From assembly GCF_003334255.1 (NCBI RefSeq), contig NZ_QOWU01000066.1: DNA of 23,307 bases. One strand, 5' to 3'. Of the stretch, positions 1 through 3,000 are shown piece after piece. The DNA is from Escherichia coli. GTDB lineage: Bacteria; Pseudomonadota; Gammaproteobacteria; Enterobacterales; Enterobacteriaceae. Position numbers: made by a program. How positions within the stretch are numbered: position 1 is the stretch's first letter; every line of letters begins with the position of its first letter.

Positions 1-3000
1 AGCTGATAGAAACAGAAGCCACTGGAGCACCTCAAAAACACCATCATACACTAAATCAGTAAGTTGGCAGCATCACCCAGAACCCGCTCTGGTTAATGCC
101 ATTGAGCAAGGCCTTCGGGCACAGCATGGTGTTGTCACTGAAGATGACATTCTCATGGAGCTGACCAAATGGGTTGAAGCTTCTGATAACGACATCCTCA
201 GTGATATCTACCAGCAAACGATCAATTATGTGGTCAGTGGCCAGCACCCTACGCTTTAAGGTGCTATGCTTGATCGGCAACCTAATTTAGGGGTTTAGCA
301 CGTGTTTCTTCGCTACGGCGATGTTGTCCTTAAAACTAGCTACAGGATTGAGGAGTTAAAATGAAATCGAACCGTCAGGCACGTCATATTCTTGGACTGG
401 ACCATAAAATTTCTAACCAGCGCAAAATAGTTACCGAAGGTGACAAATCCAGCGTAGTAAATAACCCAACCGGCAGAAAACGCCCCGCTGAAAAGTAATT
501 CATAACCATCAGTCCTCAATGACGATTAAACACCATTGCCTGCGCAATGGTGTTTTTGTTTTTATCTGCTTTATACTTGAGGCCGACGCCCTGGCGGTAA
601 AGCAAAGACGATAAAAGCCCCCCAGGGATGGATATTCAAAAAAGAGTGAGTGACATGGAACCAAAAACAAAAAAACAGCGTTCGCTTTATATCCCTTACG
701 CTGGCCCTGTACTGCTGGAATTTCCGTTGTTGAATAAAGGCAGTGCCTTCAGCATGGAAGAACGCCGTAACTTCAACCTGCTGGGGTTACTGCCGGAAGT
801 GGTCGAAACCATCGAAGAACAAGCGGAACGAGCATGGATCCAGTATCAGGGATTCAAAACCGAAATCGACAAACACATCTACCTGCGTAACATCCAGGAC
901 ACTAACGAAACCCTCTTCTACCGTCTGGTAAACAATCATCTTGATGAGATGATGCCTGTTATTTATACCCCAACCGTCGGCGCAGCCTGTGAGCGTTTTT
1001 CTGAGATCTACCGCCGTTCACGCGGCGTGTTTATCTCTTACCAGAACCGGCACAATATGGACGATATTCTGCAAAACGTGCCGAACCATAATATTAAAGT
1101 GATTGTGGTGACTGACGGTGAACGCATTCTGGGGCTTGGTGACCAGGGCATCGGCGGGATGGGCATTCCGATCGGTAAACTGTCGCTCTATACCGCCTGT
1201 GGCGGCATCAGCCCGGCGTATACCCTTCCGGTGGTGCTGGATGTCGGAACGAACAACCAACAGCTGCTTAACGATCCGCTGTATATGGGCTGGCGTAATC
1301 CGCGTATCACTGACGACGAATACTATGAATTCGTTGATGAATTTATCCAGGCTGTGAAACAACGCTGGCCAGACGTGCTGTTGCAGTTTGAAGACTTTGC
1401 TCAAAAAAATGCGATGCCGTTACTTAACCGCTATCGCAATGAAATTTGTTCTTTTAACGATGACATTCAGGGCACTGCGGCGGTAACAGTCGGCACACTG
1501 ATCGCAGCAAGCCGCGCGGCAGGTGGTCAGTTAAGCGAGAAAAAAATCGTCTTCCTTGGCGCAGGTTCAGCGGGATGCGGCATTGCCGAAATGAGCATCT
1601 CCCAGACCCAGCGCGAAGGATTAAGCGAGGAAGCGGCGCGGCAGAAAGTCTTTATGGTCGATCGCTTTGGCTTGCTGACTGACAAGATGCCGAACCTGCT
1701 GCCTTTCCAGACCAAACTGGTGCAGAAGCGCGAAAACCTCAGTGACTGGGATACCGACAGCGATGTGCTGTCACTGCTGGATGTGGTGCGCAATGTAAAA
1801 CCAGATATTCTGATTGGCGTCTCAGGACAGACCGGGCTGTTTACGGAAGAGATCATCCGTGAGATGCATAAACACTGTCCGCGTCCGATCGTGATGCCGC
1901 TGTCTAACCCGACGTCACGCGTGGAAGCCACACCGCAGGACATTATCGCCTGGACCGAAGGTAACGCGCTGGTCGCCACGGGCAGCCCGTTTAATCCAGT
2001 GGTATGGAAAGATAAAATCTACCCTATCGCCCAGTGTAACAACGCCTTTATTTTCCCGGGCATCGGCCTGGGTGTTATTGCTTCCGGCGCGTCACGTATC
2101 ACCGATGAGATGCTGATGTCGGCAAGTGAAACGCTGGCGCAGTATTCACCATTGGTGCTGAACGGCGAAGGTATGGTACTGCCGGAACTGAAAGATATTC
2201 AGAAAGTCTCCCGCGCAATTGCGTTTGCGGTTGGCAAAATGGCGCAGCAGCAAGGCGTGGCGGTGAAAACCTCTGCCGAAGCCCTGCAACAGGCCATTGA
2301 CGATAATTTCTGGCAAGCCGAATACCGCGACTACCGCCGTACCTCCATCTAAGCCTGCGCCCGGTAGTGAAGGCTACCGGGCTATTTCCCTCTCCCTTTT
2401 TCAGATCTCATCCATACTGGGTAGTGGCGAATAAATCTCATTTGCCTCACCTGCTATGCAGAACATCATCCGAAAAGGAGGAACTATGAAGGCTGCAGTT
2501 GTTACGAAGGATCATCATGTTGACGTTACGTATAAAACACTGCGCTCACTGAAACATGGCGAAGCCCTGCTGAAAATGGAGTGTTGTGGTGTATGTCATA
2601 CCGATCTTCATGTTAAGAATGGCGATTTTGGTGACAAAACCGGCGTAATTCTGGGCCATGAAGGCATCGGTGTGGTGGCAGAAGTGGGTCCAGGTGTCAC
2701 CTCATTAAAACCAGGCGATCGTGCCAGCGTGGCGTGGTTCTACGAAGGATGCGGTCATTGCGAATACTGTAACAGTGGTAACGAAACGCTCTGCCGTTCA
2801 GTTAAAAATGCCGGATACAGCGTTGATGGCGGGATGGCGGAAGAGTGCATCGTGGTCGCCGATTACGCGGTAAAAGTGCCAGATGGTCTGGACTCGGCGG
2901 CGGCCAGCAGCATTACCTGTGCGGGAGTCACCACCTACAAAGCCGTTAAGCTGTCAAAAATTCGTCCAGGGCAGTGGATTGCTATCTACGGTCTTGGCGG

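Follow-up and report, generated by a model that had tools for sequence, protein, structure and literature searches.

An ordinary sra (rpsV) gene downstream of a natural IS1 insertion in bdm of Escherichia coli

Sra (RpsV) of Escherichia coli K-12, also described as 'ribosomal protein S22' or protein D, binds the 30S subunit and builds up in early stationary phase alongside hibernation factors (PMC9959377, PMC10502375, PMC10746276). Quantitative mass spectrometry has detected the protein on ribosomes (PMC9959377), its abundances and copy numbers have been derived from ribosome profiling and mass spectrometry (PMC10502375), and translational lacZ fusions of sra reach their maximum in stationary phase (PMC10917681). 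RMF, HPF, RaiA and the YqjD/ElaB/YgaM proteins are, like Sra, small, stationary-phase-induced, ribosome-associated and CsrA-repressed in exponential phase (PMC10746276, PMC9959377), but they have no sequence relationship to it. In contrast to other stationary-phase ribosome factors, Sra leaves the 70S/100S distribution unchanged (PMC10746276), and among these factors it is restricted to Enterobacteriaceae (our scan; bioRxiv 10.1101/2025.11.04.686544). Transcription of the K-12 gene starts at a promoter of its own and at that of bdm (PMC10746276), and bdm-sra is listed as a unit (PMC3946193). Under Rcs-inducing conditions (LolCDE inhibitor), bdm is up 88-fold and sra 7.6-fold (PMC5105897), a difference that fits partial read-through.

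We analysed a window of 23,307 nucleotides of E. coli DNA (contig NZ_QOWU01000066.1), to which all positions refer unless another sequence is named. The reading frame at 361–498 on the + strand, which has an ATG start and comprises 45 codons and a TAA stop, is almost certainly sra (rpsV, b1480). Together with a leader that bears the ribosome-binding site and an intrinsic terminator at which the RNA ends near 558, the 45 codons make up a compact unit, with an IS1 element in bdm upstream and, probably, with its own promoter in use. Its product is identical to the MG1655 translation of K-12 Sra at 45 of 45 residues. In profile searches it scores 74.5 bits on the NCBIfam equivalog model NF007473 (Sra), whose cut-off is 35 (E = 6.6e-21), and 108.1 bits on Pfam PF08136 (SRA_like; E = 2.8e-31), the latter match covering residues 1–44 of 45. 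The original prediction of a genuine sra gene is thus borne out by the identity to b1480 and by both family models, whose scores lie far above their cut-offs and leave a clear Sra match for the 45-residue product. The calculated mass (5,095.8, or 5,096 Da) belongs to a strongly basic protein with a pI of 11.04; this pI and the length agree with the sra/rpsV entry of a published table, which lists a pI of 11.04 and 45 residues (PMC6904343). A PDB sequence search with Sra returned no chain at E ≤ 0.01.

The surroundings are equally familiar. Alignment of 78–660 to the bdm-sra-maeA region of MG1655 gives 100% identity, and the gene order of bdm remnant, sra, maeA and adhP recurs, with bdm, in Salmonella and Intestinirhabdus. 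The Sra name and PF08136 are carried by homologues in Escherichia, Salmonella, Citrobacter and Intestinirhabdus. A Shine–Dalgarno sequence, GAGGAG, is present at 350–355 (+) as had been predicted, with a 5-nt spacer (TTAAA) before the ATG at 361. The locus therefore shares with K-12 the same 45 residues, the same ribosome-binding site (RBS), the same terminator and the same flank from bdm codon 12 to maeA; the gene itself is no different, and the sole difference lies upstream, where IS1 stands between sra and the bdm promoter. This is an already known gene at a known place with known signals; none of the observations speaks against its identity, and the finding is correct but ordinary.

The intrinsic terminator of sra occupies 528–565 (+). 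A 12-bp stem (528–539/544–555) that includes five G-C pairs and closes a 4-nt loop starts thirty bases past the sra stop codon, folds with a dG of −16.7 kcal/mol and is followed by the T-tract TTGTTTTTAT at 556–565. The '10-bp perfect stem' with T-run noticed earlier is the inner part of this longer helix. Such a pattern is not in itself beyond chance, as shuffles of the 700-base region contain 0.8 sites on average, and the case consequently rests on conservation and Term-seq. Of 75 distinct orthologous loci, 69 have a hairpin that runs straight into a T-run 3′ of sra; the stem sequences vary and pairing is kept. Term-seq of MG1655 places a strong RNA 3′ end at 1555766(−), with a read score of 143,837 (PMC7815308 supplement); in our numbering this is position 558, inside the T-tract, and the MG1655 sequence is identical here. 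The sra terminator is real and functional.

The upstream difference begins at the first base. Positions 1–77 (− strand) are the terminal 77 bases of IS1, at its left end (IRL, insA side), so that the window begins inside the element and the transposase is directed away from sra; in reverse complement the stretch reads GGTGATGCTGCCAACTTACTG... The junction with bdm falls exactly at the IS1 terminus. It is followed at 78–86 by CAGAACCCG, the right-hand copy of a target-site duplication of 9 bp, the length expected from IS1 transposition. By alignment to MG1655, positions 78–259 (+) are the 3′ 182 bases of bdm, a remnant cut off by IS1 from the first 34 bases of the gene (about 11 codons), from its ribosome-binding site and from its promoter; RefSeq annotates it as a 56-residue CDS at 89–259. 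Among 5,426 complete genomes of E. coli, two contain the same junction in one piece, NZ_CM149861.1 (100% identity) and NZ_CP058355.1 (98.8%). Both are natural chromosomes in which IS1 is complete (768 bp), the target duplication measures 9 bp, and the 5′ end and promoter of bdm survive beyond the element. In NZ_CM149861.1 (L001), IS1 spans 1810–2577 (768 bp), begins with GGTAATGACTCC and finishes with GGCAGCATCACC, its terminal inverted repeats, and has its annotated transposase (InsAB′, with a programmed frameshift) on the − strand, the reverse of that of sra. There CAGAACCCG flanks the element on both sides (1801–1809 and 2578–2586), and it occurs once in the uninterrupted bdm of MG1655. The far side of IS1 in L001 holds the first 34 bases of bdm with the left duplication copy, then the intact bdm promoter and osmC. 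In its length, inverted repeats, InsAB′ frameshift and duplication, as seen in L001, the insertion resembles simple insertions of the IS1A/IS1B family; compared with IS1 elsewhere, only the last 77 bases lie inside our window, and the exact insertion site is rare. A consensus scan marks a promoter-like site at 70–43 on the − strand within the IS1 end. As for a hybrid promoter directed outward from that end, the candidate TTGGCA at 64–69 was rejected, having no acceptable −10 at 16–18 nt.

The original prediction had instead assigned this end to vector, with the bdm promoter replaced by vector DNA, which would make positions 1–77 pACYC184-type sequence fused to an E. coli fragment in an engineered construct. 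Vectors of the pACYC184 type hold the same IS1 end as a Tn9 remnant, the 77 bases lying beside the cat gene in pACYC184, and this probably explains the call; the window also begins within the IS1 stretch, with the continuation out of view. Against a construct, bdm is joined at the last IS1 base and not at a point unrelated to the IS1 terminus, and the bases that follow are the 9-bp duplication found in two natural chromosomes at the identical site. The remainder of the 23.3 kb is collinear with, and 100% identical to, ordinary E. coli chromosomes. Assemblies may break at repeats, and this would be enough to account for a window whose first base falls within an IS copy. An engineered origin is thus very improbable, and positions 1–77 belong to a natural IS1 insertion in the start of bdm, with no cloning vector. 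For genome scanning the pitfall is a general one, since an IS1 end is mistakable for vector when common vectors carry the same remnant. Still more remote is the idea of a 45-codon ORF that arose by chance, or of a true product on the opposite strand (340–519, 59 residues; 384–509, 41 residues). Short ORFs are common, with 39 of at least 20 residues in the first 2.5 kb, but the Sra family models match far above their cut-offs and the protein has been detected repeatedly (PMC9959377, PMC6904343, PMC10502375). Substitutions also follow the + strand frame: over the first 26 codons, variable sites at codon positions 1, 2 and 3 number 13, 7 and 21, so that third positions are the most variable, and the median pairwise dN/dS is 0.10. 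A frame of 43–47 codons is kept in all completely sequenced copies except one (L032), in about 80 species. No support was found for the opposite-strand ORFs over the sra DNA. The tests run already refute a chance or opposite-strand product, and the sra reading frame is under purifying selection.

The orthologues behind these comparisons were collected with a DNA pattern made of the ribosome-binding site (AGGAG required) and the first seven codons. It found sra in 82 species genomes, all of Enterobacteriaceae except for a single unclassified MAG and a single record that bears the label Chryseobacterium. Among the genera represented are Escherichia, Salmonella, Citrobacter, Enterobacter, Lelliottia, Leclercia, Kosakonia, Pluralibacter, Phytobacter, Trabulsiella, Superficieibacter and Silvania. 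Within the present scan the family is confined to Enterobacteriaceae, in agreement with a recent preprint that dates the Sra family to Enterobacteriaceae and suggests de novo birth (bioRxiv 10.1101/2025.11.04.686544).

The insertion bears directly on how sra is transcribed. In L001 about 90 bases separate the bdm promoter (TTGCCA...TATAAA) from the insertion point downstream of it, and in the present strain an extra 777 bases (IS1 plus duplication) stand between that promoter and sra. IS1 is generally polar, and we infer a large loss of bdm read-through on that ground. Here a 768-bp IS1 has entered bdm at about codon 12, its left end towards sra; read-through from the Rcs-controlled bdm promoter would be largely lost, and sra would depend on its own promoter, intact downstream of the insertion. 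A present dependence of sra on its own promoter is a reasonable reading. The original prediction had said the same, and in this it stands, given the two promoters described in PMC10746276; its premise of vector DNA does not, the interruption being IS1. Several relatives without bdm have sra directly beside divergent osmC, and one metagenomic relative has it in a different neighbourhood, which indicates that sra can be expressed without bdm and can stand alone. Strains with the IS1::bdm allele thus form a ready-made experiment on the share of sra expression owed to bdm read-through.

The position of the sra promoter can be narrowed from published Term-seq data. Among the 3′ ends in these data is 1555999(−), which is classed as 'upstream ORF -36' for sra and placed in its 5′ UTR (PMC7815308 supplement); it corresponds to position 325. 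The filter applied to those data kept a 5′-UTR end only if a transcription start (Thomason data) lay upstream and more than 20 nt away, and, with an intervening stop codon (here the bdm stop, 257–259), the start had to be within 200 nt. Since more than 300 nt separate the bdm start from this end, the filtering rule implies a transcription start of sra 21–200 nt upstream of 325, somewhere in 125–305. The best candidate −10 is TGCTATGCT at 262–270 (+), a putative extended −10 element with TG, C at −13 and TATGCT. An extended −10 with C at −13 is the form typical of sigma-S-dependent promoters. The region of TGCTATGCT is conserved as CTGCTA(A/T)GCT just after the bdm stop in all genomes with bdm, and a consensus scan of the + strand over 1–700 found no canonical sigma-70 −35/−10 pair. 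With this element the promoter would extend back into the last part of bdm, leaving the greater part of 280–360 as leader and not promoter. An earlier placement of the promoter at 260–360 is therefore right in part: sra does have its own promoter (PMC10746276) and the candidate −10 falls at 262–270, but the upstream part would lie in the bdm end and most of 280–360 in the leader. Three other elements were rejected on consensus, geometry and hairpin covariation, namely the −10 candidates TAAAAC (331–336) and GGTTACAT and the sigma-32 −35 candidate CCCTTGAA. Separately, the primer table of PMC10746276 gives the sra-lacZ oligonucleotide as the same as that of elaB, an apparent table error that yields no coordinates.

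The leader has features in common with RBS-masking leaders and with the 5′-UTR attenuators listed from Term-seq (Adams et al. 2021), namely a hairpin, a U-rich stretch, an RNA 3′ end and a stretch complementary to the ribosome-binding site. The hairpin (TCGC tacg GCGA, 310–321, +) shows covariation across 71 orthologous leaders, in which 5 of 5 pairs are changed on both sides. Cells with both sides changed number 52, against 13.4 ± 3.8 in shuffles, and none of 500 shuffles reaches the observed count. Paired cells make up 91.7% of the total (8–55% with the partner slid), with the four Escherichia-type rows out of register in the alignment and scored as unpaired. The K-12 3′ end at 325 lies four nt downstream of this hairpin. 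Beyond it, the conserved stretch TCCTTAA (327–333, +) can pair with TTGAGGA (348–354) and so mask the RBS, a pairing predicted both by RNAalifold and by the single-sequence fold. The family form is TCCTT(A/G)A pairing with TT(G/A)AGGA, in which the position of the G-U wobble differs between two sequence classes; these two leader classes coincide with presence and absence of bdm. Across 84 species 94% of the masking-stretch cells are paired, a figure that reflects mostly conservation and G-U shifts. Likewise, (G/A)AGGAG is present in 84 of 84 orthologous leaders, of which AGGAG was required by the search pattern itself.

The near-invariance of this block also suggests a different arrangement, with a sole sra promoter just upstream of the RBS, for example TTCGCT at 309–314 and TAAAAC at 331–336, a leader of about 18 nt, and 326–338 as a −10 box. 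The sequence CCTT(A/G)AAAC hardly varies across 84 species, and the spacing from the TTCGCT hexamer is 16 nt in E. coli. In a −10 element, however, positions 2 (A) and 6 (T) are the two most conserved, and TAAAAC/TGAAAC has no T at position 6, while half of the species also have no A at position 2. The supposed −35 sits inside the hairpin, where sequence changes freely and pairing is kept, a behaviour that fits transcribed RNA and not a promoter hexamer. The 3′ end at 325 was kept as a 5′-UTR end, which needs a start more than 20 nt upstream, and 94% of cells show complementarity between the block and the ribosome-binding site. A promoter this close to the RBS is accordingly unlikely, and the block at 326–338 behaves as an RBS-pairing sequence and not as a −10 box.

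It is possible, if on balance somewhat doubtful, that the sra leader forms a family-wide cis-regulatory module, in which the hairpin at 310–321 may serve as an attenuator or stabiliser that gives rise to the RNA 3′ end in vivo and 327–333 may mask the RBS. Taken whole, the leader has a folding energy that shuffles match (z = 0.22), and the evidence for its elements is therefore comparative. This sets the sra leader apart from catalogued attenuators, as does its lack of an Rfam match: at gathering thresholds over the whole window, Rfam returned only the fdnG SECIS element and no sra-leader family, and over 200–660 at E ≤ 5 it gave no family beyond chance-level matches on the terminator. An ACAGGA motif occupies the loop that separates the masking stretch from the RBS; CsrA is described as acting on sra indirectly (PMC10746276), which leaves the motif as a lead only. 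If the module is real, it would place a hibernation-type factor under post-transcriptional control as well, and IS1 would leave the module and the sra promoter as sole inputs, with sra uncoupled from Rcs-driven bdm transcription.

A final observation concerns how easily the gene is overlooked. That genes below 60 residues are missing from the ORF track, as the original prediction pointed out, is true but trivial: the listing has a default floor of 60 residues, which is the only reason for the absence of sra, and sra appears when the minimum is lowered to 20. In genome scanning, such a floor conceals real, abundant small proteins. Over the same 23 kb, the MG1655 annotation has just one CDS of fewer than 60 residues, namely sra.

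The leader of sra contains a hairpin at window 310–325 (+) whose pairing is supported by covariation, with changes on both sides in all five pairs across 71 species. A Term-seq 3′ end published for K-12 coincides with this hairpin, which may serve as an attenuator or as an RNA-stabilising element; the leaders of Leclercia/Silvania and Pluralibacter are without it. The published Term-seq data also place a further RNA 3′ end at window 387 (+) (MG1655 position 1555937), 26 nt into the sra coding sequence. Back in the leader, downstream of the hairpin, a conserved stretch at 327–333 (+) is able to pair, through 348–354, with the ribosome-binding site, and an ACAGGA motif lies in the loop between the two arms. 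When the sra leaders of 84 species are compared, they fall into two strictly separate classes, TTA...GAGGAG and TTG...AAGGAG, which coincide with the presence or absence of bdm.

In some relatives, namely Citrobacter spp. and E. albertii (L005, L009 and L010), no bdm gene is called and sra lies directly beside the divergent osmC. E. albertii nevertheless retains, upstream of sra, a visible stretch that resembles the bdm 3′ end. In one metagenomic relative (L008) the locus is arranged differently: sra is flanked by an amino-acid permease gene on one side and a YncE-like gene on the other, and does not adjoin maeA. Among the completely sequenced sra copies, only that of Enterobacter sp. EA-1 (L032) carries a premature stop, leaving 17 aa, and may represent a pseudogene or a sequencing error. 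The sra locus in a record labelled Chryseobacterium sp. 18061 (L088) is enterobacterial and nearly identical to the one in ‘Citrobacter sp. 18056’ (L085), a genome belonging to the same project; the Chryseobacterium record is probably mislabelled or contaminated.

Upstream of sra, bdm is interrupted at approximately codon 12 by IS1, flanked by the 9-bp duplication CAGAACCCG (window 1–86; positions 1801–2586 in L001, a chromosome with the same junction). Of 5,426 complete E. coli genomes, only 2 share this exact IS1/bdm junction. In many other strains an IS1 end lies within ~30–300 bp further upstream, which makes the bdm–osmC spacer look like a recurrent target of IS1. Both genomes with this junction have the bdm remnant (window 89–259, +) recorded in RefSeq as WP_054518599.1, a 56-aa ‘biofilm-dependent modulation protein’ taken to be intact. 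Translation is annotated to begin at a CTG codon, which lacks its own promoter and its own ribosome-binding site, and the entry is probably a disrupted bdm gene annotated as intact.

On the other side of sra, the sequence CTGCTTTATACTT at window 566–578 (+) lies between the sra terminator and maeA and is kept across genera. This segment resembles an extended −10 element (TGnTTTATACT) that would serve maeA. The start of maeA itself is placed at 628 (+) in the mechanical ORF, giving 574 aa, whereas RefSeq and the K-12 annotation place it at 655, giving a 565-aa product beginning MEPKTKK.

Further along the window, fdnG (5698–8745, −) appears as two ORFs of 195 and 803 aa, divided by an in-frame TGA selenocysteine codon. 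Just downstream of this TGA, a SECIS element at 8105–8163 (−) matches Rfam SECIS_3 with 84.3 bits, above the family's gathering score of 63.
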